Notes under the pieces: model-generated
The model's database searches: none
Told to the model about the DNA's origin: nothing
What the model saw: the letters and a program-made list of their open reading frames with translations, nothing else
Program-made: the position numbers and the translations under genes
In this document: piece after piece, positions 6,302 to 30,779 of the stretch
Layout of the letters: every line of letters begins with the position of its first letter
How positions within the stretch are numbered: position 1 is the first letter of the stretch
Assembly (NCBI GenBank): GCA_021787535.1
Contig: JAJYLR010000003.1
Coordinates: 56-64,055 of the forward strand
From: a bacterium
GTDB taxonomy: Bacteria > Patescibacteriota > CPR2 > UBA1875 > JAJYID01
Direction of reading: 5' to 3'
DNA length: 64,000 bases

Positions 6302-6691
6302 ATGCGGAGGGGAATCTTAAAAAACAGCCGGGGAGTGACGCTGACTGAGATTATTATCTTGGTGGTGGTTGTTGCTGTTTTTGCTATTACCTTTATTCCG
6401 CTTGTTACTGAAAATATGGTGGCGAATACCAAGGCAAAGACTCAACTTGCCGCTTATGAGGCGGCCCATCAAAAAATGGAGGAGCTTAGAAATACAAGTT
6501 TTGATACTCTTGCAAGCGGCGCATTTCAAACACCTAATGTTCAGGGGGGGAGCGGTACAGTGACGATTACTCCGGATATAAATGGTGACGGACAAGATGA
6601 ACAGGGTATTGTCAAGGCGGATGTTCAGGTGGCTTATCCCGATCGCGGCCAGACGAAAACTGTAACTTTAACGACCTTTATAGCGCAATGA
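6302..6691 (+). CDS. Pilin-like / minor pseudopilin
   Basis: N-terminal GVTLTEIIILVVVVAVFAI resembles a prepilin signal followed by a hydrophobic helix. Confidence 0.5.
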   Translation: MRRGILKNSRGVTLTEIIILVVVVAVFAITFIPLVTENMVANTKAKTQLAAYEAAHQKMEELRNTSFDTLASGAFQTPNVQGGSGTVTITPDINGDGQDEQGIVKADVQVAYPDRGQTKTVTLTTFIAQ

Positions 6692-7266
6692 AAACATTAG
6701 GCCAAAAAGGATTTACCATTATCGAAATGACTATAGCTGTTGTTATTTTAGGCATAATAGTAGTGGTGATCAGCGATATGTATTTAAAGGGCACCATTTC
6801 TTCAAAAACAGAAATGGCGAGGTCTAAGCTGCAGATTGAAGAGAAAAATGCACTTGAAGGAATAACTAACAATGTTACGCTGAGTACAAAAATCGATTCC
6901 GATTACGGCAGCGGCGCATACACGGGAGGGCAACAAACCTTGATTTTAGACTTGCCGGCTATAGACAGCGGCAATAATTTTCTATATAGCGGCAGCCAGA
7001 AAGTCCATGATTATATAATTTATTATCTAAGCGGTTCGGATTTGCATAAGCTTGTTTATTCAAGCGATCCTGATAGCCGGCTGCATTCTGAAGACGGCAG
7101 CGACCAAATATTGCTTTCCGATGTCAAAAGCTTGTCATTTACCTATGATGCTGCTCTGCCAAATAGCGTAACAGTAACAACAAATCTGATAATTCAGGAT
7201 ACTGCCCAAAATCCGCCGCAGGAAGTAAACATGAGCTCAAAAGCAATGAGGAGGAATAGTGACTAG
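6688..7266 (+). CDS. Minor pilin (prepilin-type N-terminal domain)
   Basis: KGFTIIEMTIAVVILGIIVVVI. The gene overlaps its neighbours by 4 nt. Confidence 0.6.
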   Translation: MKTLGQKGFTIIEMTIAVVILGIIVVVISDMYLKGTISSKTEMARSKLQIEEKNALEGITNNVTLSTKIDSDYGSGAYTGGQQTLILDLPAIDSGNNFLYSGSQKVHDYIIYYLSGSDLHKLVYSSDPDSRLHSEDGSDQILLSDVKSLSFTYDAALPNSVTVTTNLIIQDTAQNPPQEVNMSSKAMRRNSD

Positions 7267-8524
7267 CAAGAAATTTTCAATTTTCAATTTTCAATTTTCA
7301 ATGTCCCTGATTTTGCGGCCGCTTAGAAATAGGCAGCTTTTGCCAAGCCGCCAGGGATCAATCTTGGTTCTATTTATTATTGTTCTGTCTGTCATGACTA
7401 CGATCGTTCTGGCCGTTTCGGGGCTTGTTTTAAATAACCGGATTGGAGTTGAGCGGACTTATCAGAAAGACAAAGCTTTAAATATTGCCGAGGCGGGGAT
7501 ACAAAAAGCGCTGTGGGAACTAAAGGGTCATAACCCATCCTATACCGGAGAAACGGGTAATACTTACATTGCGGGCGGGGAATTTGATGTTACAGTCACT
7601 CAAATTGATGCGAACAACGATTACATTACATCAACAGCTTATGTTCCCTCGAAAGCCAATCCTAAATACAAAAAAGCGATCAAAGTTAAAATATCTGATA
7701 CGCCGGTTACTACAAATCCGGCCTTTAGCTACGCTATTCAGGCGGGAGCAGGAGGTATCGATGTGGGCGGATCGAGCGAGGTACATGGCAGTCTTTATTC
7801 TAATGGTGCAATCTCTGTATCAGGCGCATCAGCAACAGTAAATGATCCCGGAGATGCTTGGGCAGTCACAACTATTACCGATCCCAAAGGCGGAATCAAA
7901 GGCACTAAAACGCAAGGAGCCCAGCCGGTAGCTTTGCCGACTATTGACTTGAACCAATGGCGGTCTTTGGCCCAAGCTGGCGGGACCATTACCGGCGACT
8001 ATTCTCCGCCTGCGACCGGTAGTTACACCAATTTTGGACCAAAAGAAATTACGGGGAATTTTTCAATGTCCGGATCAAATCAAAAAATGAATCTAATGGG
8101 GCCTTTGTATATCCACGGCAACCTAAATATTAGCGGTGGCGAATGGAAACTTGATGATTCCTTCGGGTCCAATGGCACGATAGTTTTGGTCGACGGCCAA
8201 ATCAGTATTACCGGAGGCGACTTTCATGGCAATTCCAGCGGATCTTATATTTTATTTATTTCTACTAGTACCGCTAACACTAAAGACAGCGGTTCTGCAA
8301 TATATTATAGAGGCAATGCTAATGGTGAAAAGCTGGCTCTTTATGCATATAATGGAGCGATGACGTTGGCAGGTTCCGGCGAAATTATCGCAATGACCGG
8401 ACAAACCTTGTTTTTAAACGGCAGCGGAGAGATACACTATGACAGCGGCCTGAAGTCCGAACAGTTTGCCGGCGGCCCCGGCGGGACTTGGGTTGTGAAA
8501 GAATGGCAGGAGATATCGCCCTGA
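7259..8524 (+). CDS. PilX-like large minor pilin (PilX N-terminal domain)
   Basis: GTG start after AGGAGG. RQGSILVLFIIVLSVMTTIVLAVSGL resembles PilX_N. The C-terminal region is rich in G, S and T. Confidence 0.55.
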   Translation: MTSKKFSIFNFQFSMSLILRPLRNRQLLPSRQGSILVLFIIVLSVMTTIVLAVSGLVLNNRIGVERTYQKDKALNIAEAGIQKALWELKGHNPSYTGETGNTYIAGGEFDVTVTQIDANNDYITSTAYVPSKANPKYKKAIKVKISDTPVTTNPAFSYAIQAGAGGIDVGGSSEVHGSLYSNGAISVSGASATVNDPGDAWAVTTITDPKGGIKGTKTQGAQPVALPTIDLNQWRSLAQAGGTITGDYSPPATGSYTNFGPKEITGNFSMSGSNQKMNLMGPLYIHGNLNISGGEWKLDDSFGSNGTIVLVDGQISITGGDFHGNSSGSYILFISTSTANTKDSGSAIYYRGNANGEKLALYAYNGAMTLAGSGEIIAMTGQTLFLNGSGEIHYDSGLKSEQFAGGPGGTWVVKEWQEISP

Positions 8525-8733
8525 CGGGAATGACTAATTAACAATTTCTAATGTCTAATCAAATTCAAATGACCAAATTTCAAAAATTGACGTTTATAAA
8601 TTAGGTATTGTTAAGTATTGATTAGACATTAGAAATTAGGATTTAGAAATTACTCATATGAATTGCTTAAATACTTTGGTTTAAATATAATAAAGATAAT
8701 TATAAAAAGATTAGTTAAGTTACCGGAGGGTTT

Positions 8734-9786
8734 TTGCTTAAGCAAGATCTGATTTATAAAGAAAAAGATTGCCTGGGGCTTGATATCGGCGCCAGTTCGG
8801 TTAAAATCGTCCAGCTTAAAAAGAAAAAGTCGCTGACAAAGTTGATGGGCTACGAAAGCAAGGCGCTTCCGGAGAATATCATTATCGAAGGTGTGATTTC
8901 CGAGCCGGAAAAATTGGCTCAAATGATTAAAGGCATGATAAGCGAGACGAAGGAAGGCAAGTTTACTGCAAAAAAAGCCATTGCTTCAATACCAGATGCA
9001 AATGTTTTCACCAGAGTTTTGGAGATGCCGCCTCTTTCCGCTAAGGAACTGAAAGAAGCTCTCATGTGGGAAGCGGATCAGTCAATACCGATGGCTATGA
9101 CTGATCTTGTCATTGATTGGCAGGTCCTCGGCCCGTCTATTACCAAAAAAGGCATGAATGATATCCTGCTTGTTGGGGCGCCGCTTGCGATTGTCAACTC
9201 TTATGTCCAGCTCTTTGACAAACTAGGTCTCCAGCCGGAAGCGATTGAAACTAGTTTGGTCTCAGTTATTCGGGCGCTTGTGTCAAATAAGGAGCGCGAT
9301 GAAGTAATGCTAGTTGTCGATATTGGATCAAGGTCTACAAACTTAGGTTTTTATGATCATACTCTGCGGCTGGCCGACAGTTTGGATTTCGGCGGATTAA
9401 ACTTTACAGATGCGATCAGGGCCGGCGCTCAAGTTGACGAAAAAAAAGCTGAGGAAATGAAAATGAAAATTGGGCTGAAAGATAAAAAAGTCGCCGAAGC
9501 GCTTGATAGTATTCTTGCCAATTTGAAGAGTGAGATGAGCAAAGTTATTAAATATCACGATGAGAGAAATGAAACTAAGACTTCGAAAGTTATTCTTTGC
9601 GGAGGATCTTCGAACCTTATAGGTCTGACAGAATACTTGGCTGAGGCACTGAAAGTAGAGGTTAAGGTCGGAAATCCATGGGTTAATATCGACACTTATC
9701 CTTTAAAGCCCGTGCCGAAAGCCGAAGCTCCTGCATATGCCAATGCTATCGGGCTTTCGCTGAGGGCTATGGAGGCAATAGTATGA
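8734..9786 (+). CDS. pilM: Type IV pilus assembly protein PilM (actin-like ATPase)
   Basis: LGLDIGASSVKIVQL N-terminal actin-fold motif. TTG start after GGAGGG. It is followed by pilN and pilO. Confidence 0.8.
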   Translation: MLKQDLIYKEKDCLGLDIGASSVKIVQLKKKKSLTKLMGYESKALPENIIIEGVISEPEKLAQMIKGMISETKEGKFTAKKAIASIPDANVFTRVLEMPPLSAKELKEALMWEADQSIPMAMTDLVIDWQVLGPSITKKGMNDILLVGAPLAIVNSYVQLFDKLGLQPEAIETSLVSVIRALVSNKERDEVMLVVDIGSRSTNLGFYDHTLRLADSLDFGGLNFTDAIRAGAQVDEKKAEEMKMKIGLKDKKVAEALDSILANLKSEMSKVIKYHDERNETKTSKVILCGGSSNLIGLTEYLAEALKVEVKVGNPWVNIDTYPLKPVPKAEAPAYANAIGLSLRAMEAIV

Positions 9787-10355
9787 TCCAGGTTAATTTA
9801 TTGCCTGAAGAGATACGGGAAAACATTAACTTTTCTAAGAAGAATCGAAAAGTTTTAAATCTTTTGAAAATGATATCTATCCTCTGCCTTTTCATATTAG
9901 CCGGTTTCCTGATCATTGGAGCATCACTTCTTTCCAGCAGCAGTTTCTTTAAAAAAGCGATTAGCGAGTCTACAGATACTCTGAGATCCTATCAGCCCAG
10001 TATCGATGAAAAAGAAAACATAGAAAACAAAGGGGTGATCGTCGCTAATATTCGGAAAAACTATAGATATTGGACTAAGTTCAACTATATCTTAGCTGAG
10101 AACACGCCTCAAGGGATTTATCTCTCCACGGTAGCCAACAAAAATAAGACTTTGCAAATAGAAGGTTATGCGAAGACTAAAAACGATGTCGGGATTTTTA
10201 GGGACGCTCTAGGCAAAAGCTCTGCTTTTTCAAATGTGAACATCGAGAGTATAAAAGAAGTGCCGGATCCTCTAAATCAGAACCTTCAAGTGAATGACTT
10301 CATCATGACTATGGCGCTTGAGAATGCGGCGACAAATCAGGGAGGCGGACGATGA
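9783..10355 (+). CDS. pilN: PilN
   Basis: MIQVNLLPEEIRE N-terminus with one TM segment, translationally coupled to pilM. Confidence 0.7.
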   Translation: MIQVNLLPEEIRENINFSKKNRKVLNLLKMISILCLFILAGFLIIGASLLSSSSFFKKAISESTDTLRSYQPSIDEKENIENKGVIVANIRKNYRYWTKFNYILAENTPQGIYLSTVANKNKTLQIEGYAKTKNDVGIFRDALGKSSAFSNVNIESIKEVPDPLNQNLQVNDFIMTMALENAATNQGGGR

Positions 10356-10933
10356 GAGTGAAAAAAATAAATGCGCGGTCGCTTCTCGGAATCCTTTACG
10401 GATTTTTAGGGCTTATTATAATCTTAACGTTGGCAGCCGGGGTATATCTTGCCCTCAAGGTAAATGACCTGAGCTTAGAGGTAGCAAAAAACAGATATTT
10501 ATCGGTAAATAACAATCAGAAAATAGAGGCCCTCGCTAACCTTCAAAAAAATTTAAAAGAAATGTCTGATGAAAAGGCGCTTTTGGATAGCTATCTGCCT
10601 CAGGATAAAGAAGTTTCCAGTATCTTGAAGGACTTTGAAACATTATCGGGGGCAAATGGCTTAAGTTTCAGTATTTTTACCGCCGGCGAAGGATCTTCAA
10701 CCACAACATTCAAACCTTCGAGCGACCAGACGCAAAAGTCCGGCAACTATTATGTTTTTCCATTTCAGGTGACTGTCAACGGCAGCTTCGCCCGCATCAA
10801 CCTAATGATGAGGGAAATGGAAAATTATAAGAGATTAGTAGAAATCAAAGATATTAAGTATGCAAAAGATACCAGTGCCCCGTCAGATATTACAGAGGCA
10901 GTTTTACAAGTTAACGCTTATTTAAAAAAATGA
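10352..10933 (+). CDS. pilO: PilO-like
   Basis: Single TM plus a periplasmic domain, in operon position after pilN. Confidence 0.5.
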   Translation: MRVKKINARSLLGILYGFLGLIIILTLAAGVYLALKVNDLSLEVAKNRYLSVNNNQKIEALANLQKNLKEMSDEKALLDSYLPQDKEVSSILKDFETLSGANGLSFSIFTAGEGSSTTTFKPSSDQTQKSGNYYVFPFQVTVNGSFARINLMMREMENYKRLVEIKDIKYAKDTSAPSDITEAVLQVNAYLKK

Positions 10934-11238
10934 AAATTCCAAAACCACCAAAGCCACCGAAGCTAAAAAGGCAAATTCAGTTCAATTTCTCTGCGAAGAT
11001 GCCATATATTTTTATAGCGCTCTTTCTTGCCGTTGGTTTGTCTATGGTGGCTTTCGGCTACCTTCTCCTAAACCGCCAGCCGCAGCAGTCGGTTGTCTCA
11101 GGCATGCAAAACGAGATAGACGGTCTGAAACTTAATTATGATAAAAGAAAAACAATGGAACTTTTCAATACGATGTATAATACTTCTGATTTCAAAAACT
11201 CTGCTTTTCAAGGCAAAGATCCTTTCATGAGTTTTTAA
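10930..11238 (+). CDS. Small membrane protein (possible PilP-like, hypothetical)
   Basis: Coupled to pilO and has one TM segment. Confidence 0.3.
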   Translation: MKIPKPPKPPKLKRQIQFNFSAKMPYIFIALFLAVGLSMVAFGYLLLNRQPQQSVVSGMQNEIDGLKLNYDKRKTMELFNTMYNTSDFKNSAFQGKDPFMSF

Positions 11239-11244
11239 AGTGCC

Positions 11245-11273
11245 TTGACCTGTGCGGCCGTTTCGATTATAAT
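11245..11273 (+). promoter_or_regulatory. Sigma70-type promoter (TTGACC-17-TATAAT) driving a ~270-nt leader
   Basis: TTGACC at 11245-11250 and TATAAT at 11268-11273. Confidence 0.5.
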
Positions 11274-11532
11274 TATTCAGCGTTCGAAACGACTTACCGT
11301 TTTCATGAGAAACCAGAAGTATGGTAATTTCTCAAGGTAAAATGTTTTGTTCGTACCTACAGATACAGGGATACGGGTCCCTACAAACTTCCTGAGGCGG
11401 AAGTATACGTAAGGTCTGTAGGTTGATTTCAATGGGTACTAAGAATCTGGCAAAAGCAAGTGAAACTCTGATTGTTGATAGATTCAGTTCTCTTCTTGAA
11501 AAAAATGACATCTCAGCCTCCTCTCTATTCAA

Positions 11533-11558
11533 GGGCGCTCCCGTAAGCGCTCTTTTTC
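11533..11558 (+). terminator. Intrinsic terminator/attenuator inside the leader upstream of the GT4 gene
   Basis: GCGCT-cccgta-AGCGC hairpin followed by TCTTTTTCC. Confidence 0.45.
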
Positions 11559-11633
11559 CTTTGGAAATTTTATCCGGCGGCTTTTTTATGAAAAAAAGCT
11601 TTCCAAAAAAAGCGCATTGTTTATACTTAGGTT

Positions 11634-12869
11634 ATGAATGCAGTCAAAACACAGAGAGGCATCGGTCTAGAGCATTATCAGGGTATTATTGATGATTCCC
11701 TTTTTGATGAGGTTGTTGGTCTGGCCAGGCGGCTCAAGGATGTTCGGGTTTGCCATATAAACGCCACTTCATACGGCGGAGGCGTAGCAGAAATTCTTCA
11801 AAAAGAAATTCCTCTGGCAAAAGGAATGGGTCTTCAGTTTGACTGGAAAACAGTTTCCGCTGAACCGGGATTTTTTGATGTAACCAAAAAAATACACAAT
11901 GGGCTTCAAGGGGCAGATGTGAAAATTTCCGAGCGCGAATGGCAGATATATCAAAGCTGCAATATCGATCAGGTGAAGCGTATTAACCCTAGCGATTATG
12001 ACGTTTTCTTTATTCACGATCCTCAGCCGGCTGAGATCATCGGCTGCATCGGCAAAAACGGCGCCAAGTGGGTCTGGCGATGCCATATCGATACTGATGA
12101 GCCAAACCGGGCGATTGCCGATTATTTCCTGAAGTTTTTAAATTTATATGATGCGTCTATATTCACTATGAAAGATTACGTCTTAAAAGGCATGAAAAAC
12201 GATATTTTTATTATTGAACCGGCCATCGATCCGCTTGCTATAAAAAATCGCTGCTTATCACACAAAGAAGCTGAAGAACTGGTGAGGGGTTTTCATATTG
12301 ATACGAGCAGGCCGCTTGTCACCCAGGTGTCGCGCTTTGATCCCTGGAAAGATCCGATTGGCGTAGTTGATGCCTACCGAGCAGCTAAAAAGGAAATGCC
12401 TGAGCTGCAGCTTGCCATGATCGGTTCCATGGCCGATGATGATCCGGAAGGGCAAGAAATTTATAATCAGCTAAAAGAGTATGCAGGCGAAAATCAAGAT
12501 ATTCATATTCTTACCAACCATGATGCGCTACACGACATCGAAGTCAACGCTTTCCAGACTTATTCGGATGTTATAATCCAGAAATCCGTCAAAGAAGGTT
12601 TTGGGCTGACGGTTTCCGAAGCGCTCTGGAAAGAAACGCCGGTTATAGGCGGCAACGTCGGCGGGATACCGACTCAGATTCAAGATGGCAAGACCGGATT
12701 CCTCGTAAATAATTCGCTAGAATGCGCCGAAAAGATCGTTTATTTAGTTAAAAATAAAAAGATTGGCGAAAAAATGGGAAAACTTGGCAAAGAGGATGTC
12801 CGGAAAAAATTTCTCTTACCCCGGCTTCTGCGAGATGAGCTAAAGCTGATAGAAAAGCTAGTCCACTAA
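11634..12869 (+). CDS. GT4 family glycosyltransferase (trehalose synthase TreT-like)
   Basis: 411 aa. The C-terminal half carries EGFGLTVSEALWKETPVIGGNVGGIP, a GT-B nucleotide-sugar binding motif. Overall layout resembles the TreT/GT4 clade. Confidence 0.55.
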   Translation: MNAVKTQRGIGLEHYQGIIDDSLFDEVVGLARRLKDVRVCHINATSYGGGVAEILQKEIPLAKGMGLQFDWKTVSAEPGFFDVTKKIHNGLQGADVKISEREWQIYQSCNIDQVKRINPSDYDVFFIHDPQPAEIIGCIGKNGAKWVWRCHIDTDEPNRAIADYFLKFLNLYDASIFTMKDYVLKGMKNDIFIIEPAIDPLAIKNRCLSHKEAEELVRGFHIDTSRPLVTQVSRFDPWKDPIGVVDAYRAAKKEMPELQLAMIGSMADDDPEGQEIYNQLKEYAGENQDIHILTNHDALHDIEVNAFQTYSDVIIQKSVKEGFGLTVSEALWKETPVIGGNVGGIPTQIQDGKTGFLVNNSLECAEKIVYLVKNKKIGEKMGKLGKEDVRKKFLLPRLLRDELKLIEKLVH

Positions 12870-17023: not shown

Positions 17024-17063
17024 AAAAATATTAATTTGTCAAAGATTTTTGCGAAAAGGGTAT

Positions 17064-17092
17064 TGACAACTGTATTCGGTATTGCTATATTT
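17064..17092 (+). promoter_or_regulatory. Sigma70 promoter of the hrcA operon (TTGACA-17-TATATT)
   Basis: TTGACA at 17064-17069 and TATATT at 17087-17092, immediately 5' of CIRCE. Confidence 0.6.
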
Positions 17093-17095
17093 TAT

Positions 17096-17122
17096 TAGCA
17101 CTCGGACACCGAGAGTGCCAGA
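17096..17122 (+). promoter_or_regulatory. CIRCE operator (HrcA binding site)
   Basis: TTAGCACTC-ggacaccga-GAGTGCcAg matches the CIRCE consensus TTAGCACTC-N9-GAGTGCTAA. Confidence 0.8.
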
Positions 17123-17170
17123 AATCACATCTTGGTGTAGTATGCAGTATACCGTATTGAGTATTGAGGG

Positions 17171-17251
17171 GATTCTGGACAAGCCAGAATGACAAAGGGA
17201 AAGGGATTCCTCCGCTTGCCCCGTCGGACGGGGTTGTCGGTCGGAATGACA
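17171..17251. repeat. Two repeat units (GATTCTGGACAAGCCAGAATGACA + GGATTCCTCCGC...GTCGGTCGGAATGACA) between CIRCE and the hrcA start
   Basis: Hairpin ATTCTGG-acaag-CCAGAAT followed by GACA. The second unit closely resembles the 3' half of the murD insert. Confidence 0.65.
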
Positions 17252-17258
17252 AAAACCT

Positions 17259-17969
17259 ATGACATCACGCAGAGAAGCGATATTAGAAGCGATTGTTCGT
17301 GAATACGTCGAAACGGCGGAGCCGGTTGGCTCTTTAACGCTTGTTCGGAAGTACGCTTTTCCTTACTCCTCAGCCACGATTCGTGCTGAGATGGCCATGC
17401 TGGAGGAAAATGGCTTCATCATGCAACCGCACACTTCAGCGGGAAGAATTCCGACCGAAAAGGGTTATAAATATTTCGTCAAAATGATTGAGAATGAAGA
17501 AAAAAGCCTGGCCGGTCGTGAGGAGGATATATTAAAAAAGCGCATTGAAGCTATGCATGCTCAATACGAGCGTAAGTTTGACGCCGCCGCGCTGGCACTG
17601 GCCGAGATGACTAGAAATGTAGCGCTTTCTACGCTTGGCCAGGAAGTGTATTCGCATGGTTTGGCAAACCTTTTCCGCCAGCCGGAGTTTATAGATACGG
17701 ATCGCGTGCTGGGGATAGCCGACATGATTGACAACATGAGCACGCTGTTAAACGAATTACCCAGAAGCAAGAATTTCATGGTTCTGGTTGGCTCCGAGAC
17801 GCCTATTGGCAAGTCAGCCGACGCATCACTTGTCATATCGAGAGTAGACACTCCCTACGGGGTTCGCGGATATTTAGGTGTCTTGGGTCCCACCAGGATG
17901 AGTTATGAAAGGGTAATTCCATTAGTTAAACGCACCAGAGATTTGCTGGAGAATGATTTAAATAGGTAG
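17259..17969 (+). CDS. hrcA: Heat-inducible transcription repressor HrcA (short form)
   Basis: N-terminal winged helix ILEAIVREYVETAEPVGSLTL and C-terminal GVLGPTRMSYERVIPLV. CIRCE lies upstream. Confidence 0.8.
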   Translation: MTSRREAILEAIVREYVETAEPVGSLTLVRKYAFPYSSATIRAEMAMLEENGFIMQPHTSAGRIPTEKGYKYFVKMIENEEKSLAGREEDILKKRIEAMHAQYERKFDAAALALAEMTRNVALSTLGQEVYSHGLANLFRQPEFIDTDRVLGIADMIDNMSTLLNELPRSKNFMVLVGSETPIGKSADASLVISRVDTPYGVRGYLGVLGPTRMSYERVIPLVKRTRDLLENDLNR

Positions 17970-18053
17970 CTTTACAAGGGTCCGACCCTTCTAGGGACGA
18001 ATTCTTTGCGAGGGTCGGGCCCTTGTAAAACGGGAGAACAAATCACCTTCTCC

Positions 18054-18087
18054 TGTCATTCCCGCTCAGGCGGGAATCCAGACAAGC
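18054..18087. repeat. Repeat unit TGTCATTCCCGCTCAGGCGGGAATCCAGACAAG
   Basis: Same termini with a different hairpin stem. Lies upstream of grpE. Confidence 0.5.
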
Positions 18088-18141
18088 AATGTTAAATAGT
18101 TAATTATAGAATTTTAAATAAATTTAGAAAGATCAAGAAGT

Positions 18142-18729
18142 ATGAAAGAGAAAGACAAGAAAGCCAAAGGCAAAAAGGAAGACCAACTGGATTCCCGCCG
18201 GAGTTTATCCGACGAAGCTAAAGCGTGGGCGGGTGGGAATGACAAGAAAGAGGTCAGGAATGAAAATATAGAAGCCGAGCATGACAAGGGTCAGACCCTT
18301 GCAATGGAAAATGTTGCTTTGAAGAAGATGCTGCAGCGGGCACAGGCGGATTTTATAAATTACCGCCAGCGTGCAGAGCGGGAGAAGTCAGAAATGGTCG
18401 ATTACGGCAAGCTGGAGACGATTAAGGAGCTTCTGCCGGTATTCGACAACTTCGAACGGGCCAGAAACCATTTCCCGAAGGAGCTGGAGAAGAATGATTG
18501 GGCGCAGGGGATGCTCGCGGTAGAGAAGCAGTTTGTCCAGAAAATGGAAGAAATGGGGATTAAGAGAATCCCGACAGTCGGCGAGCAATTTGATCCAAAT
18601 TTACATGAGGCAATACACATGGAGCCGGCAAAAGGCAAGAAATCGAATGAGATTACCTGCGAATACGAACCGGGATACATATATAAAGATAAAGTTTTAA
18701 GGTATGCAAAGGTAAAGTTGGCAAAATGA
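18142..18729 (+). CDS. grpE: Nucleotide exchange factor GrpE
   Basis: Coiled-coil N-terminus, LLPVFDNFERA motif and a C-terminal beta domain. Confidence 0.8.
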   Translation: MKEKDKKAKGKKEDQLDSRRSLSDEAKAWAGGNDKKEVRNENIEAEHDKGQTLAMENVALKKMLQRAQADFINYRQRAEREKSEMVDYGKLETIKELLPVFDNFERARNHFPKELEKNDWAQGMLAVEKQFVQKMEEMGIKRIPTVGEQFDPNLHEAIHMEPAKGKKSNEITCEYEPGYIYKDKVLRYAKVKLAK

Positions 18730-19412
18730 AGTTTGAACTAAAAAGGTACAATAAAGGTCCTAGAAAAGATTATCGCAATATAACTAATGAGGAGCTGATT
18801 ACTGATTTGCGGGATGTCGCTAATAGGTTACAGAAAGAGTCAGTCACTCATGGAGAATACGACCAGAATGGCAGATTTAATAGTCATATTTTTGGTAGAA
18901 GGTTTGGAGGTTGGTTGAACGCACTTGAAGAAGCTGGTCTTCAAAAAACAAGAAATTATCAAATAGCTGATGAGGAAGCATTTCAAAATTTAGAGAATGT
19001 TTGGATGAAACTGGGGCGACAACCTAGGCGCGAAGATTTACATAGACCACTTTCAAAGTATAGCGGAGCATTCTATGAATATCGATTTGGTGCATGGAGC
19101 AAGGCGCTGGAAAAGTTTATTAATTATATTAACAAGGCAGAACTCAGTACATTAGAGAGATCCGAAAATACAACAAGTAATCCGAGTATTCAACATAAAA
19201 CAAATAGGAATATAAATTTGCAGTTACGTTTTATTGTCATGAAAAGAGATAATTTTAAATGTCAAAAATGTGGTCGATCGCCAGCAACTGACTCGAGCAT
19301 AATTCTACATGTTGATCATAAAAAAGCATGGGCGAATGGTGGTGAAACAGTATTGGAAAACTTGCAGACACTTTGTTCGAAGTGCAACATAGGTAAAAGC
19401 GATTTGGAGTAA
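18726..19412 (+). CDS. Free-standing HNH endonuclease with two homing-endonuclease-associated repeats
   Basis: C-terminal HNH signature: CQKCG...LHVDHKKAWANGGETVLENLQTLCSKCN. N-terminal repeats read RFGGWLNALEEAGL and YRFGAWSKALEKF. ATGA overlap with the grpE stop. Confidence 0.75.
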   Translation: MKFELKRYNKGPRKDYRNITNEELITDLRDVANRLQKESVTHGEYDQNGRFNSHIFGRRFGGWLNALEEAGLQKTRNYQIADEEAFQNLENVWMKLGRQPRREDLHRPLSKYSGAFYEYRFGAWSKALEKFINYINKAELSTLERSENTTSNPSIQHKTNRNINLQLRFIVMKRDNFKCQKCGRSPATDSSIILHVDHKKAWANGGETVLENLQTLCSKCNIGKSDLE

Positions 19413-19446
19413 TTAAAAACGTTAAGGTTAAAGAAGGAGAAATAAA

Positions 19447-19593
19447 ATGGGGAATGAATCAGATTATACATGTGGAAATTGTGGGAGGAATTATCAAATC
19501 AACACAGAGGGTGAACGGATTCAGCCATGCCCTTATTGTGGTGCAAATGAAATGGTAAAGACATTGGAAGGTAAAGTTATTAAGAAAAAATAA
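19447..19593 (+). CDS. 48-aa zinc-ribbon protein (CGNC...CPYC)
   Basis: MGNESDYTCGNCGRNYQINTEGERIQPCPYCGANEMVKTLEGKVIKKK. Its RBS/start GGAGAAATAAAATGGG repeats the dnaK start context. The track missed it because it is shorter than 60 aa. Confidence 0.4.
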   Translation: MGNESDYTCGNCGRNYQINTEGERIQPCPYCGANEMVKTLEGKVIKKK

Positions 19594-19614
19594 TTAAGAA
19601 AGGGGAGAAATAAA

Positions 19615-21567
19615 ATGGGAAAAATTATCGGAATTGACCTTGGTACAACCAACTCAGCCATGGCGGTGATGGAAGGCGGAAAGGCCACCATTATCCCGAA
19701 CGCTGAAGGCGGAAGGACCACACCGTCCATCGTGGCGATGACCAAGGACGGCGCCACGAACCAGACGGTTCATGGCGGCGAGAGGCTAGTCGGACAAGCG
19801 GCCAAAAGGCAAGCAGTTATAAATCATGAGAATACAATCTTCTCAGTGAAGCGTCTGATCGGGCGAAAGTTTGACGATGCGGAGGTGAAGCGCGACATCG
19901 AGCTCATGCCGTACAAAATTGAAAAAGGAAACGGTGGAGTGAAGGTGAAGATGGGCGATAAGGATTACTCACCGGCTGAGATTTCGGCAATGATTTTACA
20001 GAAGCTGAAGGCTGATGCGGAAAGCTATCTGGGCGGTAGCGTGACTGAAGCGGTTATCACCGTGCCGGCCTACTTCAACGACTCACAAAGACAGGCCACC
20101 AAAGATGCAGGAAAGATTGCGGGCTTGGAAGTAAAGAGAATCATCAACGAACCGACCGCAGCCGCGCTGGCTTACGGATTAGACAAAAAGAAGGAAGAGA
20201 AGGTTGCCGTTTATGACCTTGGCGGAGGTACGTTTGACATCTCTATCCTTGAGCTTGGTGATGGCGTCTTTGAAGTAAAGTCAACCAATGGTGACACTCA
20301 TCTTGGCGGTGACGACTTCGACCAGCACTTGATCGATGAGCTGGCTGAAGAGTTTAAGAAAGACCAAGGCGTTGATCTGAAGAAAGATACAGCTGCGCTA
20401 CAGAGACTTAAAGAAGCAGCCGAGAAGGCGAAAATTGAGCTTTCTTCTGCCATGGAGACGGAGATTAACATCCCGTTTATTACGGCTGACGCATCCGGTC
20501 CTAAGCATTTGACCATGAAGTTAAGCCGGGCAAAGTTCGAGTCCATCGTTGGCGAACTAGTCGACAAGACATTAAAGCCGGTTGAAAAGGCTTTGAAGGA
20601 TGCCGGAATTAAAAAGGAAGATGTGAACGAGGTGATCCTGGTCGGCGGTATGACGAGAATGCCGCTGGTGCAGAAGAAGGTGAAGGAGTACTTCGGCAAA
20701 GATCCGCTGAAAGGCGTGAATCCTGACGAGGTGGTGGCGATCGGCGCTGCTATCCAGGGTGGTGTGCTTGGCGGAGAGGTGAAGGATGTTCTTCTTCTCG
20801 ATGTCACTCCACTTTCACTTGGTATCGAGACTCTTGGCGGTGTTTCCACCAGATTAATCGAGAGAAATACGACTATTCCGACGAGCGCTTCGCAGGTGTT
20901 CTCAACGGCGGCTGACAATCAGACTTCTGTAGAGATTAACGTGCTGCAGGGTGAGCGTGAATTTGCCAAAGACAACAAATCGCTTGGACGATTTATACTT
21001 GATGGTATTCCACCGGCACCTCGAGGCATTCCTCAGGTTGAGGTAACCTTTGATATCGATGCCAACGGTATCGTCAATGTTTCTGCTAAGGATAAGGCAA
21101 GCGGGAAATCGCAGCACATAACCATCCAATCTTCATCCGGACTTTCAGAGGAAGAGATCGAGAAGATGAGAAAAGACGCTGAGGCGCATGCCGAGGAAGA
21201 TAAGAAGCAGAAAGAGCTGGTTGAGATCCGAAATATGGCTGACTCCTTAATTTACACTTCGGAAAAGACCGTCAAAGATGCCGGAGACAAGGCAACAGAC
21301 GAGGAGAAGAAGGATGTCGAGGATAAGATTAAAGAGCTTCGTGAAGTGAAGGATAAGGATGACAAGGATGCGATTCAGAAAGCCTATGATGAACTGTCTG
21401 AGGTCATTCAAAAGATTGGTGCAAAGATGTACGAATCTCAAGCCGGCGCTGAAGGCGGTGAATCTACCGAAGAACCAAAGAAAGACGAAGGACCAGTTGA
21501 GGGTGAGGTTGTAGACGAAGATAAGAAAGATCCTTCATCAGATTCAGGACAAGCTGAAGAGAAATAA
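19615..21567 (+). CDS. dnaK: Chaperone DnaK (Hsp70)
   Basis: [18 protein letters not shown] and the canonical substrate-binding domain. Acidic C-terminal tail. Confidence 0.95.
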
Positions 21568-21575
21568 TTCCACTT

Positions 21576-21671
21576 TGTCATCCTCGGACTTGATCCGGGG
21601 ATCCAGACAGTCAGTGGGAAATTGACTGGATCCCCGCCTTCGCGGGAATGACAAAAAGAAGGGGAATGACA
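21576..21671. repeat. Repeat element with nested palindromes (TGTCATCC...CGCGGGAATGACA, GGGGAATGACA)
   Basis: CCGGGGATCC...GGATCCCCG long stem. Two GAATGACA ends. Lies immediately after the dnaK stop. Confidence 0.55.
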
Positions 21672-21824
21672 AATGTAAGTGAATTATTAATTCATTGATC
21701 CGACCAGGGCTCGGAAAGTGATTTCCGGGCCTCATCGGGTTAAGAGCCTGTACATTTTAGCTAAATAGTGGTAAAATTTATGCCACGAAAACCAAAAAAT
21801 TCGAGTACCTGAGGAGGTGTAGCC

Positions 21825-22247
21825 TTGACAGAACTAACGGAAGAACTAAATCAGCTAATGGCAGCTGAAACGATGGCGAATGATCTCTCACGTAAGTTTG
21901 TTAAAGTCATTCGCGGCTTATCTCCGGAAGAATTTTGGGAATTTTTGAAAGACACGAAAGTTCCTATTATCAGAGATATGCCTGAGGGTGTCATAAGAAT
22001 CTTGGTGGTCAGGTTGCGAGATCCGGACATTGTCGCCTTTGAAGACTCTGTCTCTACTTGCAGGAGCAAGATTGCAAAGATCGAAAAGATACACCGTGAC
22101 TTTGTCACCTCTTCACTAGCTACCCTCTCTGATATTGAGAAGGAGAGTCTGGCAAGAAGGCTGGATCCAACTCTTGTTCCGCGAGAAGAAAGATCCTGCG
22201 GGACAGGTTCCTCTGGTTGGGGTGGCGGAGGCGGAGGCGGTAAGTAA
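21825..22247 (+). CDS. Hypothetical protein with C-terminal poly-Gly tail
   Basis: TTG start after GAGGAGG. Ends ...SSGWGGGGGGGK. GC-rich. Confidence 0.4.
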   Translation: MTELTEELNQLMAAETMANDLSRKFVKVIRGLSPEEFWEFLKDTKVPIIRDMPEGVIRILVVRLRDPDIVAFEDSVSTCRSKIAKIEKIHRDFVTSSLATLSDIEKESLARRLDPTLVPREERSCGTGSSGWGGGGGGGK

Positions 22248-22283
22248 GTTCAGTCACAAAAATCACCGAGGAGGTGACCACAT

Positions 22284-22890
22284 GAAAGATAGATTCTCCG
22301 GCGTGGTGCACGGCATAACCCGAGTAGTATTGACCGCTCCGCTGCGCAGGCTCTGGGGCTGCCATGTCATTGGCGCGGAAAATCTTCCAGCGCAGGGCCC
22401 AGCGATATTTGCATCGAACCATGCGAGTTATCTGGACCCCATGATTCTCGGAATCAGCTATGCAGGCAACATTCGCTGGATGGCGAAAGCCGAGCTCTGG
22501 AAGATACCGGTTTTCAGGTGGCTTATCGAAAAGCTGGGGGCATTTCCGGTCAGGCGCGGCAAGCCTGATAGGGCGGCCCTTCGGCAGGCACGCGAACTGC
22601 TTGTCGGGAAAAAGGTCCTCGGGATGTTTCCCCAAGGCACGCGGATTAAGGGGGAAGACCTCGGCGAAGCTTTTCCGGGAGTCGGTATGATTGCCTTGTC
22701 CGAGGATATCCCAGTGATTCCTATTCGGGTGAGAGGCCATAATCAGGTTTTCCGGCGGGGGATACCACGCTTTCCGGCGATAACAATCACTGTCGGTGAA
22801 CCGATAGATCTCGAGATCAAAGGGATGAGGCGGAGTGAGGCAGCTAAGGAGGCGGCCAACCGTATCATGGCAGCAATCAAGGCTTTATGA
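22284..22890 (+). CDS. Lysophospholipid (1-acyl-glycerol-3-phosphate) acyltransferase family protein
   Basis: HX4D motif FASNHASYLDP, a PVRRG-type motif FPVRRGKPDR, and FPQGTR. ATG at 22284 follows GAGGAGGTGA. The track ORF starts earlier, at 22135. Confidence 0.7.
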
Positions 22891-22907
22891 CTCGGGAGGT
22901 GACGGAG

Positions 22908-23054
22908 ATGGAACCAGGAACGGGTACGGCTGTAGGTTTCCTGATGGCTGCTCTGCTAATTGCGGTATTGGTCATTGCAATGATCGCAGATGATAACGAT
23001 ACCGCAGGGAATAACGTTTACCCACAGGTTGCAAAGACAATCAGCCAACCCTAA
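22908..23054 (+). CDS. Small single-TM peptide (hypothetical)
   Basis: 48 aa. RBS GGGAGGTGA. Hydrophobic core AVGFLMAALLIAVLVIAMIA. Confidence 0.25.
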   Translation: MEPGTGTAVGFLMAALLIAVLVIAMIADDNDTAGNNVYPQVAKTISQP

Positions 23055-23070
23055 CACAGGAGGACAGCGT

Positions 23071-23253
23071 ATGCACAAAGGCACTTATGAGAAGCCAGCT
23101 CTTGTTCAGGAAGGTGATCTCAAACGCATCACTGGTACGGATGCGGGTTGGCAGAGCAGTATTGCGACTGCCCACAATACCAAGAAGCATGAGTGCCATT
23201 GTGGTGATGGCGCCCATGGGTGTGGCTGTAGTCACGATCACGACGCCGCCTAG
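23071..23253 (+). CDS. Small Cys/His-rich protein (HECHCGDGAHGCGCSHDHD), putative metal-binding
   Basis: ATG at 23071 after GGAGG. 60 aa ending in a dense C/H cluster. Confidence 0.35.
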   Translation: MHKGTYEKPALVQEGDLKRITGTDAGWQSSIATAHNTKKHECHCGDGAHGCGCSHDHDAA

Positions 23254-23365
23254 AAGGAATGGCGGGGGTGTAAGGATTTGCAAAAGGGCAGGGCGTTCGC
23301 GCCCCGCCCATTCAATTTAAGAGACAATTTAGATAGAAATTTGGTATAATTTTTATATAGATTCC

Positions 23366-23384
23366 TGTTTTCACGGGAATGACA
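23366..23384. repeat. 3'-end fragment of the repeat (TTCACGGGAATGACA), 11 nt before the dnaJ start
   Basis: Matches CTTCGCGGGAATGACA at 21640-21653. Confidence 0.4.
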
Positions 23385-23395
23385 GAAAGAGGAAT

Positions 23396-24514
23396 ATGGC
23401 AAGTAAAGATTATTATGAAATACTAGGCGTCAAGAAGGATGCCGGAGTGGACGAAATCAAGAAGGCTTATCGCAAGCTGGCTTTAAAGTATCATCCGGAT
23501 AAAGGCGGCGGAGCCGAAGCTGAGTCGAAATTTAAAGAGATTAACGAGGCCTACCAGATTCTTTCCGACCCCGAGAAGCGCCAGGCGTATGATCAGTTTG
23601 GTTCCACCCAGCCGGGTGGTGGGTTTAATTGGCAGCAGTACCAGCAGCAGGCCGGGCAAGGTTATGACGGTGGTTTTGAAGGGTTCGACTTTTCGGATCT
23701 TGGAGGATTTGGCGATATATTTGAAACATTTTTCGGCGGTGGCGGAGGCAGGTCTCGCGCGCGAAAAGGCGCTGACCTCGAAACCGTCATTACTGTAGAT
23801 TTCAAAGAGGCGGTTTTCGGTGCGGAAACTTTCATCAAGCTAAACAAACATTTTGAGTGCGAAAAGTGCGGCGGGTCAGGCGCAGAAAAAGGCACGGAAA
23901 TGGTGGAGTGCAAGGTTTGCCATGGCGCCGGCAAGACCCAGACGGCCAGGCGTACAATTCTCGGCACGTTTGCCCAAACTGCCATCTGCGAGGAGTGCCA
24001 AGGGCAGGGTAAGGTGCCAAAAGTCGCCTGCTCGGTCTGCAAGGGTAAGGGAATTGTTAAAACTGAAAAAGAGGTTAAGATCAAAATCCCGGCCGGTGTT
24101 GACGATGGGCAAACTATCCGGCTCTCAGGATTGGGCGAGGCCATGAAGGGCGGTGCAACCGGCGATCTCTATGTCCACATCCGGGTGCGGCCGAATGATA
24201 AGATTAAACGAGAAGGATACAATCTCATGAATACGGCCGTCATTTCATTTGCCGAAGCGGCCATGGGCACGGTCATCGAAGTGCCGACCATTGATGGTAA
24301 TGTAAAACTGAAGATTCCGGCAGGCACCCAAAGTGAAAAGGTCTTTAAATTATCTAGCCGCGGTGTGCCGCATCTTGGTGGAGGTAAGCGTGGTGATCAT
24401 CTGGTGACCATCAAAGTTCGCGTGCCGGAAAAATTAACGAAGAAACAAAAAGAACTCTTGGAAGAATTTCAGAAAGAAGAGGGTAAAGAAAAGCCCAAAT
24501 TCTGGCCGTTCTAA
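23396..24514 (+). CDS. dnaJ: Chaperone DnaJ
   Basis: J-domain with HPD (KYHPDKG), a G/F region, and four CxxCxGxG zinc-finger repeats. Confidence 0.95.
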
Positions 24515-30239: not shown

Positions 30240-30264
30240 GATTCTGGTCAAGCCAGAATGACAA
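30240..30264. repeat. Repeat unit GATTCTGGTCAAGCCAGAATGACA overlapping the annotated ndk start
   Basis: The ATG of the GAATGACA motif is in frame with ndk. Confidence 0.55.
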
Positions 30265-30278
30265 AAAAAGGACAACTT

Positions 30279-30779
30279 ATGTCGTCACATATAGAAAAAA
30301 CTTTAGTGCTTTTGAAGCCGGATGCAGTGCAAAGGGGTTTGATTGGAAAGGTTATCTCAAGATTTGAAGACGCGGGCTTAAAAATTATCGGACTGAAAAT
30401 GGTGCAGGCGGATGAAGCCAGGGCTCTGGAACATTATGACGAAGACCTAGCCAGAAGGAGAGGCGAGCATATCAGAAAGTATAATGTTGACTTCCTCACC
30501 TCCGGACCGGTTGTGGCTATGGTTATAGAAGGTGTCAATGCCATCGAGAATATCAGGAAAATGTGCGGGACGACCGAACCGAAGTCCTCGCCACCTGGAA
30601 CCATAAGAGGCGATTTTTCCCACGTCAGTTACGGCCACTGCGATGATAAAAAAATGGTAACCAGAAATATCATCCATGCTTCCGAAGACAAGAAATTTGC
30701 TGAGAAAGAAATAAAGATCTGGTTCAAACCGGAAGAAATTACCGATTACACGGCTGTCCATGAAGTGCATACGAGGTAA
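30279..30779 (+). CDS. ndk: Nucleoside diphosphate kinase
   Basis: TLVLLKPDAVQRGLIGKVISRFEDAGLKII with the catalytic His in NIIHASED. The track ORF begins at 30258, at an ATG contributed by the upstream repeat. The biological start is probably the ATG at 30279. Confidence 0.85.
   Translation: MSSHIEKTLVLLKPDAVQRGLIGKVISRFEDAGLKIIGLKMVQADEARALEHYDEDLARRRGEHIRKYNVDFLTSGPVVAMVIEGVNAIENIRKMCGTTEPKSSPPGTIRGDFSHVSYGHCDDKKMVTRNIIHASEDKKFAEKEIKIWFKPEEITDYTAVHEVHTR

Follow-up and report, generated by a model that had tools for sequence, protein, structure and literature searches.

Palindromic repeats, an HNH endonuclease gene and a four-gene unit within the HrcA/CIRCE-type chaperone operon of a WS5-like patescibacterium

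Introduction

In the Bacillus subtilis-type heat-shock operon, the genes hrcA, grpE, dnaK and dnaJ follow one another in that order under the control of HrcA and its operator, the controlling inverted repeat of chaperone expression (CIRCE). The tiny genomes of the Candidate Phyla Radiation (CPR) are usually regarded as streamlined. Here we describe a promoter-CIRCE-hrcA-grpE-dnaK-dnaJ cluster in a 64-kb stretch of contig JAJYLR010000003.1 (the window) from an uncultivated, ultra-small bacterium that sequence comparison places in the Patescibacteria, in a lineage like candidate division WS5. We propose, with a probability of about 70%, that three independent kinds of DNA, namely dispersed palindromic repeats, a selfish HNH endonuclease open reading frame (ORF) and a four-gene unit, have enlarged a compact HrcA/CIRCE cluster, and that transcription of the operon was split and its gene cargo exchanged along the way.

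Each of the three has counterparts in described systems. Repetitive extragenic palindromic (REP) sequences of the CGTC-tagged type carry the tag CGTC, often TGTC or CCTC, unpaired at one end (Di Nocera et al. 2013, PMC3733652). Their stem of 8-9 bp begins with A-T/T-A pairs, the loop is 4-5 nt with exceptions, a CCA tail follows, and they occur as singlets and inverted dimers without an associated transposase (PMC3733652). The same study placed Neisseria dRS3 and the Rickettsia palindromic elements (RPE) RPE-4 and RPE-6 in the CGTC superfamily and documented intragenic copies (PMC3733652). The minimal mobile element was defined in Neisseria, according to the definition as quoted in PMC3082526.

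Results

The chaperone cluster and its relatives

The anatomy of the cluster was read directly from the window, and its conserved features are as follows.

17063-24514, + strand: chaperone cluster promoter-CIRCE-hrcA-grpE-dnaK-dnaJ (Pfam, promoter and CIRCE scans)
17063-17091, + strand: sigma-70-type promoter, TTGACA (17063-17068), 17-nt spacer and extended -10 TGcTATATT (-10 at 17086-17091)
17095-17121, + strand: CIRCE operator, TTAGCACTC-N9-GAGTGCCAG (consensus search)
17259-17969, + strand: hrcA, 236 aa, the short form typical of Patescibacteria (Pfam HrcA_C, 76 bits, above cutoff)
18142-18729, + strand: grpE, 195 aa (Pfam GrpE), N-terminus MKEKDKKAKGKKEDQLD homologous to the start in the related locus L083
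19615-21567, + strand: dnaK, 650 aa (Pfam HSP70, 888 bits)
23396-24514, + strand: dnaJ, 372 aa (Pfam DnaJ, DnaJ_CXXCXGXG and DnaJ_C)

Pfam matches succeed one another in the gene order HrcA_C, GrpE, two HNH_repeat plus HNH, HSP70, Acyltransferase and DnaJ. A preliminary description, made from the sequence alone, had placed a sigma-70 promoter and a CIRCE element controlling hrcA here, and our scans agree with it to within 1 nt. The promoter matches 11 of the 12 consensus positions and is kept in the alignment with the related loci L081-L083. Compared with the consensus TTAGCACTC-N9-GAGTGCTAA, the operator agrees at 25 of 27 positions including the spacer, with a perfect left arm and two mismatches, the right arm reading GAGTGCCAG. 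The match is unique in the window (0.01 expected by chance), so that there is no second CIRCE at the inserted block or at dnaJ, and CIRCE also precedes hrcA in many relatives. A second CIRCE immediately precedes dnaK in some Saccharibacteria-type relatives (L009 9910-9936, L023 9901-9927, L011 9024-9047 and L030 1739-1762), often together with an enlarged grpE-dnaK gap. HrcA scored 194.5 bits against TIGR00331, below the cutoff of 197.2, because about 100 central residues are lacking; its approximately 236 aa match the 338 model positions in two stretches, and the central segment is missing across the Patescibacteria relatives. A search of the operon with Rfam returned nothing at the gathering or E<=1 thresholds except two sub-threshold, chance-level matches.

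An exact look-up with the DnaK of the window retrieved no entry. Among 185,579 species genomes, its best matches came from Saccharibacteria and other Patescibacteria, none of them exceeding 75% identity. Closer relatives were found by a metagenome scan with HrcA as the query. The DnaK proteins of L081-L083 are 91-94% identical to that of the window (approximately 83% at the DNA level; L081 dnaK, 94% amino-acid and 83% nucleotide identity) and their HrcA proteins 71-75%, and L084-L091 form a sister group with DnaK identities of about 80% (78-81%). A further locus, L172, belongs to a metagenome-assembled genome labelled 'candidate division WS5 bacterium' and encodes a protein 81% identical to the PlsC of the window; both have plsC upstream of dnaJ, followed by a divergent TrmB gene.

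Comparison with at least 100 fetched chaperone loci indicates that the inserts are lineage-specific and that the arrangement is derived rather than ancestral. The preliminary description had read the arrangement as a set of insertions, and the synteny agrees: the inserts are not phylum-wide. Homologs of the HNH gene, the zinc-ribbon ORF, orf55 and orf87 were absent from all of these loci. For the genes of the block between dnaK and dnaJ, the only matches were an orf140 homolog in L081, where it follows dnaK, and a plsC-like match in a locus from outside the Patescibacteria (L017), which was weak at 26% identity. The grpE-dnaK gap is 27-198 nt in the sister group (L084-L089), and the dnaK-dnaJ gap is compact (<150 nt) in only 10 of the 33 Patescibacteria loci that have both genes. 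Across the phylum the slots hold unrelated genes, including those for HSP20, NYN, NUDIX, VKOR, RpiB, a methyltransferase and DUF5680, and among the three closest relatives (L081-L083) the cargo differs at each slot. The grpE-dnaK slot is occupied by the HNH and zinc-ribbon genes in the window, a peptidase S51 gene in L081, three ORFans in L082, and cupin and orf147 genes in L083, with grpE and dnaK on either side being 78-85% identical in DNA between the window and L081-L083; the cargo of L081 further includes orf176, and that of L083 a gene for a 23S-rRNA-IVP protein.

Several details of these relatives bear on how the slots are bordered. The dnaK-dnaJ slot of the sister clade holds a DUF5680 gene whose stop codon abuts the dnaJ ATG (L084 6106-6573, L087 13292-13759 and L088 6724-7221). 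L083 (4100-4180) and L082 (3895-3955) have a duplication of roughly the final 40 nt of grpE: the gene closes with a new, diverged 3' end, after which come a small hairpin and what is left of the old end (..VKLAK*). The cargo gene of L083 still uses the ATG overlapping the old grpE stop codon as its start.

The HNH gene and the zinc-ribbon ORF

The slot between grpE and dnaK contains four features, the ribosome-binding site being abbreviated RBS.

18726-19412, + strand: HNH endonuclease gene with two homing-endonuclease-associated repeats and an HNH domain; the ATG overlaps the grpE stop codon (ATGA)
19410-19454, + strand: first copy of the dnaK leader with RBS and ATGGGGAA, driving the zinc-ribbon ORF; best match to the dnaK leaders of L081-L083
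19447-19593, + strand: zinc-ribbon ORF, 48 aa (CxxC...CxxC), with weak zinc-ribbon matches in Pfam and NCBIfam
19571-19622, + strand: second copy of the dnaK leader with RBS and start, before dnaK (alignment)

The HNH module reported earlier between grpE and dnaK is confirmed by Pfam, with two HNH_repeat matches (PF18780) and one to HNH (PF01844, 43.7 bits), and the CxxC...HxxH/N...CxxC motif is intact in the translation. The family comprises 3270 homologs, and the closest (75-81% identical) lie between quite different genes, often in the order HTH-HNH-orf263. At the DNA level, identity to copies elsewhere is 78%, beginning at the ATG and ending at the TAA, and no conserved flanking target was found among four HNH contexts. 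The junctions in the window are codon-exact and leave both neighbouring genes intact: at one end the start codon overlaps the stop of grpE, and at the other the ancestral dnaK leader TAATTAAAAAC follows immediately upon the stop codon of the HNH gene. The same grpE-overlapping ATG, or its remnant, is where different cargo starts in L081 and L083. Taken together, these comparisons indicate that the HNH gene is a mobile, ORF-exact, promoterless unit predicted to be translationally coupled to grpE. The GC content at its third codon positions (GC3), 0.30, is among the lower values in the window. PADLOC gave only generic HNH or restriction-enzyme matches for it.

The closest homolog of the HNH gene is part of a tight HTH_XRE-HNH-orf263 module with 4-nt spacers (L161-L166; the HNH gene is at 4001-4687 in L161), and this module adjoins different genes, including one for a phage-type integrase. 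Instead of being a pure homing gene, HTH_XRE-HNH-orf263 may function in defence or addiction.

The zinc-ribbon ORF has about five small homologs among 1.8 billion representative proteins. It is flanked by a duplicated dnaK leader and therefore represents a separate event, involving a duplication of approximately 45 nt; the better of the two leader copies precedes the zinc-ribbon ORF rather than dnaK.

A CGTC/TGTC-type REP family

The operon contains the following intergenic repeat units (dG, folding free energy).

17170-17194, + strand: A-type REP unit (GGATTCTGGacaagCCAGAATGACA) in the 5' leader of hrcA (dG -9, z -3.6)
17203-17251, + strand: B-type REP unit with a long loop, in the hrcA leader; 7 nt separate its GACA tag from the hrcA ATG
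18054-18081, - strand: REP unit, C type, TGTC-ATTCCCGC-TCAG-GCGGGAAT-CCAG, in the hrcA-grpE spacer (census, folding)
21576-21653, two inverted units with tags outward: REP doublet directly after dnaK (census, folding)
21661-21671, + strand: REP 3' fragment GGGGAATGACA (repeat comparison)
23359-23384, + strand: REP unit with an 8-bp stem upstream of dnaJ; its purine-rich tail GAAAGAGG gives a Shine-Dalgarno sequence 11 nt before the dnaJ ATG

The units share the form (G/A)GAT(T/C)C-stem-loop-stem-G(A/G)AT-GACA, which reads TGTC-ATYC...GRAT-CCA on the opposite strand, and they fold as predicted. Their inner stems vary and yet stay complementary, defining types A (CTGG/CCAG), C (CCGCC/GGCGG) and E, and types B and D with long loops. 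All units carry GACA or GACG on the tag strand, corresponding to unpaired TGTC or CGTC. Stems of the C and E types are 8-9 bp long and start with AT, with loops of 4-5 nt (18054-18081, 21576-21606 and 23359-23384), and the tail after the stem is CCAG in these types and CC or CT in the A type. Both singlets and doublets, that is inverted dimers, occur (doublets at 146-233, 21576-21653, 56718-56795 and 59793-59897), and the unit at 18054-18081 fits the published description of CGTC REPs exactly. We conclude that these repeats are members of the CGTC/TGTC-tagged REP superfamily forming a lineage-specific family, an assignment made on tag, tail and dispersal, and on the stems and loops of the C and E types.

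A census with the pattern ATYC-stem...GRAT-GAC (tag and at least 7 paired bases) found 16 units in the window compared with 1.5 in Markov shuffles; by eye there are some 20 units in about 13 clusters per 64 kb, five of them in the operon. In this clade the units number 2.4-3.5 per 10 kb; the corresponding densities are 0.04 for Saccharibacteria loci and approximately 0.2 for the other fetched loci. The motif-plus-pairing census was used because a MAFFT alignment set the C and A types out of register; a fuzzy consensus search under-counted the units. No RAYT-like (REP-associated tyrosine transposase) gene was detected in the window or the loci by tblastn with an IS200 TnpA query, which is a weak test.

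Two repeat units had been claimed between CIRCE and hrcA, and both are there, at 17170-17194 and 17203-17251; the hrcA ATG lies 137 nt beyond the end of CIRCE, compared with about 10 nt in L087 and L089. Identical 24-nt copies of the A-type leader unit occur elsewhere in the window and in L081. The B unit has an orthologous copy in the L083 leader and a paralog inside murD (59855-59897). Every clade relative retains some hairpin in the hrcA leader, with a different copy content in each. L081 also has a REP doublet directly after dnaK. The sequence before dnaJ had been taken for a 3' repeat fragment ending 11 nt before the ATG; the position holds, but the element is a complete 8-bp hairpin rather than a fragment. 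This unit recurs in L089, with its GAAAGAG tail 11 nt before the dnaJ ATG and with compensatory changes in the stem. Most units have a purine-rich stretch of about 7 nt behind the tag, and upstream of dnaJ this tail is the sole Shine-Dalgarno-like sequence. Some copies, such as the B unit common to L083 and the pre-dnaJ unit common to L089, are old, settled parts of leaders rather than fresh invasions.

Repeats of this family also touch annotation and phage sequences. An ATG inside the GAATGACA tag makes false upstream starts (30241-30263 and 17244-17251), the mechanically called ORF at 30258-30779 probably starts at the next ATG (MSSHIEK...), and many short 'ORFs' on both strands are translated repeats. 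Window positions 21627-21673, within REP units, match 47 nt of the Microcystis phage MaAM05 (MW495066.1, 187162-187208) at 89% identity, consistent with a wide distribution of the repeat superfamily.

A second palindrome family

A second type of palindrome accompanies the REP units.

17968-18032, + strand: very stable palindrome right after the hrcA stop codon, with two CAAGGGTC-N-GACCCTTG-type half sites and no U tract (dG -41 kcal/mol, z -7.3)
18278-18304, + strand: second-family palindrome CAAGGGTCAGACCCTTG, in frame in grpE and unique to the window (folding, alignment)

The CAAGGGTC-N-GACCCTTG palindrome occurs three times in the window (17975-17991, 18009-18025 and 18285-18301), always between hrcA and the start of conserved grpE, and is thus confined to the chaperone locus within the window. 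Related sequences, for example AAAGGTCTGACCTTT, recur in the chaperone operon of relatives, in the hrcA leaders of L081 and L082 and at L081 8280-8325. The palindrome may represent a further REP family or a site for protein binding.

Repeat DNA in frame in GrpE, MurD and possibly DnaK

Three genes appear to have taken up repeat DNA in frame.

18187-18244, + strand: REP unit, C type with a long loop, in frame in the GrpE N-terminal tail (folding, alignment)
59039-60538: murD, with in-frame repeats at 59165-59211 (single unit) and 59793-59897 (105-nt doublet)
21540-21567, + strand: probable degenerate A-type REP (AGATTCaGGACAAGCtGAA...) forming the last nine dnaK codons and the stop codon (read from the sequence)

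The in-frame repeat DNA of grpE, overlooked in the preliminary description, spans 18187-18304 and comprises the REP unit and a second-family palindrome. In alignments with L081-L083, GrpE has 28-37 extra residues exactly over both palindromes, and the relatives form a graded series: L083 has neither repeat, L081 and L082 have a decayed REP copy, and the window has both. We take 18142 as the true grpE start because the start M-x-K-K...KKEDQ(I/L)D is common to the relatives, and one REP copy would then be translated in frame within the disordered N-terminal tail. MurD has about 40 extra residues between its domains over the REP doublet (query residues 253-308 compared with 249-263 of PDB 3lk7). 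Judged by sequence, both proteins resemble RPE insertions in that the repeat lies inside the ORF, the frame is kept, and orthologs lack it (L081-L083 for GrpE, PDB homologs for MurD). For DnaK, the C-terminus differs from that of L081 at 21540-21567, and the fuzzy consensus search gave no significant match to a degenerate unit there; a derivation of the last nine codons from an A unit is tentative.

The operon had been counted as interrupted four times. This count proved too low, as further interruptions include the repeat and palindrome between hrcA and grpE (17968-18081), the in-frame repeats of grpE (18187-18304), the zinc-ribbon ORF (19447-19593) and probably the end of dnaK (21540-21567).

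The four-gene block between dnaK and dnaJ

The 1828 nt from the dnaK stop codon to the dnaJ ATG hold four ORFs, with repeats on both sides (21576-21653 and 21661-21671; 23359-23384).

21678-21780, + strand: conserved left end of the block, with a stem-loop (21695-21743) and a promoter-like site (TGTACA, 17-nt spacer, TGgTAAAAT; 21749-21777)
21825-22247, + strand: orf140, all-helical ORFan with a Gly-rich tail and a TTG start (RBS reading)
22282-22890, + strand: gene for a PlsC-like lysophospholipid acyltransferase, ATG 22282 after GAGGAGGTGAC (Pfam/NCBIfam)
22908-23054, + strand: ORF for a hydrophobic (membrane) peptide, 48 aa, RBS GGGAGGTGACGGAG then ATG
23071-23253, + strand: ORF for a 60-aa peptide with leader YEKPALVQEGDLKRIT and a Cys/His-rich tail (RBS reading)
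23286-23309, + strand: GC-rich terminator-like hairpin ending the block (dG -18.9; weak U tract)
23321-23350, + strand: promoter-like site upstream of dnaJ (GAGACA, 18-nt spacer, TGgTATAAT; 10 of 12 positions, extended -10)

Reading the starts from the RBSs shifts three of them later than in the longest ORFs (22282, 22908 and 23071), and orf140 stays at TTG 21825. The block genes have strong GGAGGTGAC-type RBSs, like a longer array of small genes in L081. The 103 nt of the left end are 81% identical to L081 8443-8544 and were found nowhere else, and their stem-loop has a dG of -28 (z -4.3). Among 5.8 billion proteins, orf140 has a single homolog, that of L081; an AlphaFold2 model from this two-sequence alignment was unusable (pLDDT, the predicted local distance difference test, 51). 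Relatives of PlsC below 81% identity lie in cmk-plsC-ispH contexts of other lineages, which hints at a horizontal origin of plsC. The 48-aa hydrophobic peptide matched no family in Pfam or NCBIfam. The leader of the 60-aa peptide has a homolog with a different core at approximately 1000-1120 of L172, where the same terminator-like hairpin follows the leader-peptide gene, and the GAGACAATTT motif upstream of dnaJ is also found in L172. The stretch TYEKPALVQEGDLKRITG of this leader fits YxxPxLx3Gx5Tx, a motif of lasso- and ranthipeptide-type precursors; no maturase gene was found near the gene. The block thus appears to be a clade-specific, self-contained transcription unit, in part common to L081 and L172.

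No mobility gene, phage match or defence match was found in the block with PADLOC and the phage collection. A prophage origin of the block is not supported, since searches of the operon against that collection gave only matches to the C-terminal HNH domain of the HNH gene and the one 47-nt REP-like match. The earlier account of a GC-rich, four-gene block of about 1.8 kb flanked by repeats holds for its length, gene number and flanks. The block is GC-rich relative to the window mean of 0.43 (plsC, 0.56), but dnaK and dnaJ themselves have GC contents of 0.49-0.50 and other window genes reach 0.53-0.54. As the GC content of individual genes in the window spans 0.31-0.56, we rejected high GC as a stand-alone argument for foreign origin.

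Discussion

We propose that an ancestral, compact promoter-CIRCE-hrcA-grpE-dnaK-dnaJ cluster was expanded by REP units, a selfish HNH ORF and a four-gene unit. REP copies would have entered the hrcA leader, the hrcA-grpE spacer and the regions after dnaK and before dnaJ, and one would have entered grpE in frame, with the second palindrome type accompanying them. The promoterless HNH gene would have become fused to the grpE stop codon, and the tiny zinc-ribbon ORF would have captured a duplicated dnaK ribosome-binding site and start. The four-gene unit (orf140, the PlsC-like protein, the membrane peptide and the Cys/His-rich peptide) would have brought its own promoter-like site and terminator-like hairpin. 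Gene-sized cargo may be gained or exchanged through recombination in the flanking conserved chaperone genes, in the manner of minimal mobile elements, and nuclease-stimulated repair may have contributed in the case of the HNH gene. The duplicated grpE 3' ends of L082 and L083 and the type IV pilus genes of the window are circumstantial evidence for recombination after DNA uptake. The latter form a cluster upstream of the operon (2347-12869) with PilB-like T2SSE, PilC-like T2SSF, pseudopilin-like ORFs and PilM, a cluster relevant to DNA uptake in CPR bacteria.

We infer the transcription pattern, like the insertion mechanisms, from this arrangement. A scan of the + strand from hrcA to the end of dnaK found no terminator-like sites. 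Because of this, and because they are coupled to their neighbours, the HNH and zinc-ribbon ORFs are expected on the CIRCE-controlled transcript, and hrcA through dnaK would form one CIRCE-repressed, heat-inducible message that includes both. The block would be a nested, independent transcription unit. The dnaJ gene would be read mainly from its own promoter, with an mRNA that starts at the foot of the REP hairpin and uses the purine tail as its Shine-Dalgarno sequence; since there is no second CIRCE, dnaJ is expected to be largely independent of HrcA. The preliminary description had spoken of repeated invasion by mobile and repeat DNA. This wording suits the HNH gene, which is mobile, and the repeats, which are a dispersed family, but not the block, for which mobility did not emerge, nor those repeat copies that are old.

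Several points weigh against the proposal. The promoter and terminator calls are consensus matches only, and the block terminator, with its weak U tract, may let transcripts from dnaK run on into the block and dnaJ. REP units show modest enrichment in the operon, with 5 of about 13 clusters falling in 12% of the window; the A type with its 7-bp stem and 5-nt loop and the B and D types with their long structured loops fall outside the strict published ranges, and no transposase or recombinase able to move REPs was found, which is consistent with CGTC REPs generally. The grpE start at 18142 rests on short homology to L083, and a start at 18304 would leave the repeat non-coding in the leader. The closest relatives have only about 83% dnaK DNA identity, so the timing and number of insertions are coarse, and 'replacement' of cargo is indistinguishable from independent gains and losses. 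Finally, downstream of dnaJ too, the small genes that lie between conserved anchors are not the same in the window and in L172. For this reason the idea of the operon as a uniquely special landing pad is weakened; it appears only modestly special.

An alternative that we consider possible, yet clearly the less probable, is that the hairpins are selected RNA or DNA elements, either stem-loops with a Shine-Dalgarno-like tail that tune translation or stability, or processing or attenuation sites that set the hrcA : grpE-dnaK : dnaJ ratio. Units upstream of genes mostly have the GACA tag beside the start codon, followed by about 7 purine-rich nt, and a hairpin of -41 kcal/mol follows hrcA. The conservation of the pre-dnaJ unit in L089 with compensatory stem changes, the sharing of the B leader unit with L083 and the retention of some leader hairpin in every clade relative point the same way, and REPs in Escherichia coli and Neisseria affect mRNA fate (PMC3733652). 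However, the units occur in both orientations, inside the coding regions of grpE and murD and at many unrelated loci, the copy content of the hrcA leader differs in each relative, and the sister clade lacks hairpins at several of these positions. Such selection is also compatible with expansion by dispersed repeats, as exaptation of some copies, so the two are not exclusive.

A bolder extension of the expansion proposal, which we regard as unlikely, combines several such roles. The REP unit, with its hairpin and purine-rich tail, would be a portable leader and ribosome-binding module as well as a tolerated in-frame decoration of essential proteins. The junctions of the operon would be landing pads for codon-exact swaps of promoterless selfish ORFs at stop/start overlaps, and a homing-type nuclease under heat-shock (HrcA) regulation would drive cargo turnover through stress-induced breaks.

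A reading of the hairpins as integron-like recombination sites, with the inserted genes as captured cassettes, is very improbable, and we reject it. The conserved ends and variable stems and loops are superficially attC-like, the four-gene block is bracketed by hairpins, and the slots hold different genes in each genome. The termini TGTC...CCA nevertheless differ from the attC R''/R' cores (RYYYAAC/GTTRRRY), the HNH and zinc-ribbon genes and the cargo borders in L082 and L083 are without flanking hairpins, REP units lie inside essential ORFs, and neither the operon nor the 30 non-operon ORFs scanned yielded an integrase or other recombinase. Least probable of all is that the arrangement is ancestral with nothing inserted, or an assembly chimera at repeats in a metagenome bin: many Patescibacteria do have genes between dnaK and dnaJ and the block-flanking repeats could mislead assemblers, but slot contents differ by lineage (HSP20, NYN, NUDIX, VKOR, RpiB, DUF5680 and others) and compact operons exist, the HNH junctions are codon-exact with intact neighbours, and the block is not a chimera because independent assemblies from other samples reproduce both of its junctions, L081 with dnaK, repeats, the conserved 103 nt and the orf140 homolog, and L172 with plsC, terminator, dnaJ and TrmB.

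Expansion by repeats, an HNH ORF and a four-gene unit would extend the CGTC/TGTC REPs of the dRS3 and RPE-4/-6 class, including in-frame copies in essential genes, to the Candidate Phyla Radiation. With four related genomes carrying four cargos, the locus offers a testbed for how a vital, tightly regulated operon can take in REPs, selfish nucleases and small accessory genes and stay intact. An annotation hazard is illustrated as well, as repeat-derived peptides and ATGs in the GAATGACA tag yield false starts and false small ORFs.

Comparison with known systems

As in the B. subtilis-type operon, the gene order is kept, hrcA comes first, and a sigma-70-type promoter is followed by a CIRCE that lies over the predicted transcript start. 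The window differs in its short HrcA of 236 aa, the right CIRCE arm GAGTGCCAG, the REP-lengthened leader, the foreign ORFs between grpE and dnaK and the predicted independent unit between dnaK and dnaJ.

The repeats share with the CGTC/TGTC REPs (PMC3733652) the TGTC tag, the A-T/T-A start of the stem, the 8-bp stem with a 4-5 nt loop (types C and E) and the CCA(G) tail; they too occur as singlets and inverted dimers, mostly intergenic in co-oriented arrays with some in ORFs, and without a linked transposase. They differ in their Patescibacteria/WS5-like host, which is not among the five phyla in that study, in the 7-bp stem of the A type and the structured 20-30 nt loops of the B and D types, and in the purine-rich tail after the tag that often doubles as a Shine-Dalgarno sequence. 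Like Rickettsia RPEs, palindromic repeat DNA lies in frame in essential, conserved proteins, in the GrpE tail and the inter-domain region of MurD, with the reading frame intact; the window elements are shorter, at 25-60 nt per unit and 105 nt per doublet, and are predicted from sequence.

Free-standing HNH homing endonucleases such as phage T4 mobE (PMC2790892) are likewise small HNH genes between conserved genes, with near-identical copies in unrelated neighbourhoods and 'homing endonuclease associated repeat' Pfam domains. The HNH gene described here is chromosomal in a CPR bacterium, lacks its own promoter, is coupled to grpE through ATGA and is only putatively a homing gene. The Neisseria minimal mobile elements, as far as the definition quoted in PMC3082526 goes, resemble the grpE/dnaK and dnaK/dnaJ slots in having different whole-gene cargo between conserved genes, with REP/dRS3-type repeats nearby and type IV pilus genes present; our comparison is of genus-level relatives rather than strains, and transfer is putative here. 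The components are therefore all of known kinds, namely CGTC/TGTC REPs with RPE-like in-frame copies, a free-standing HNH gene and slots like minimal mobile elements; what is new is the host phylum and the number of such elements packed into one essential operon.

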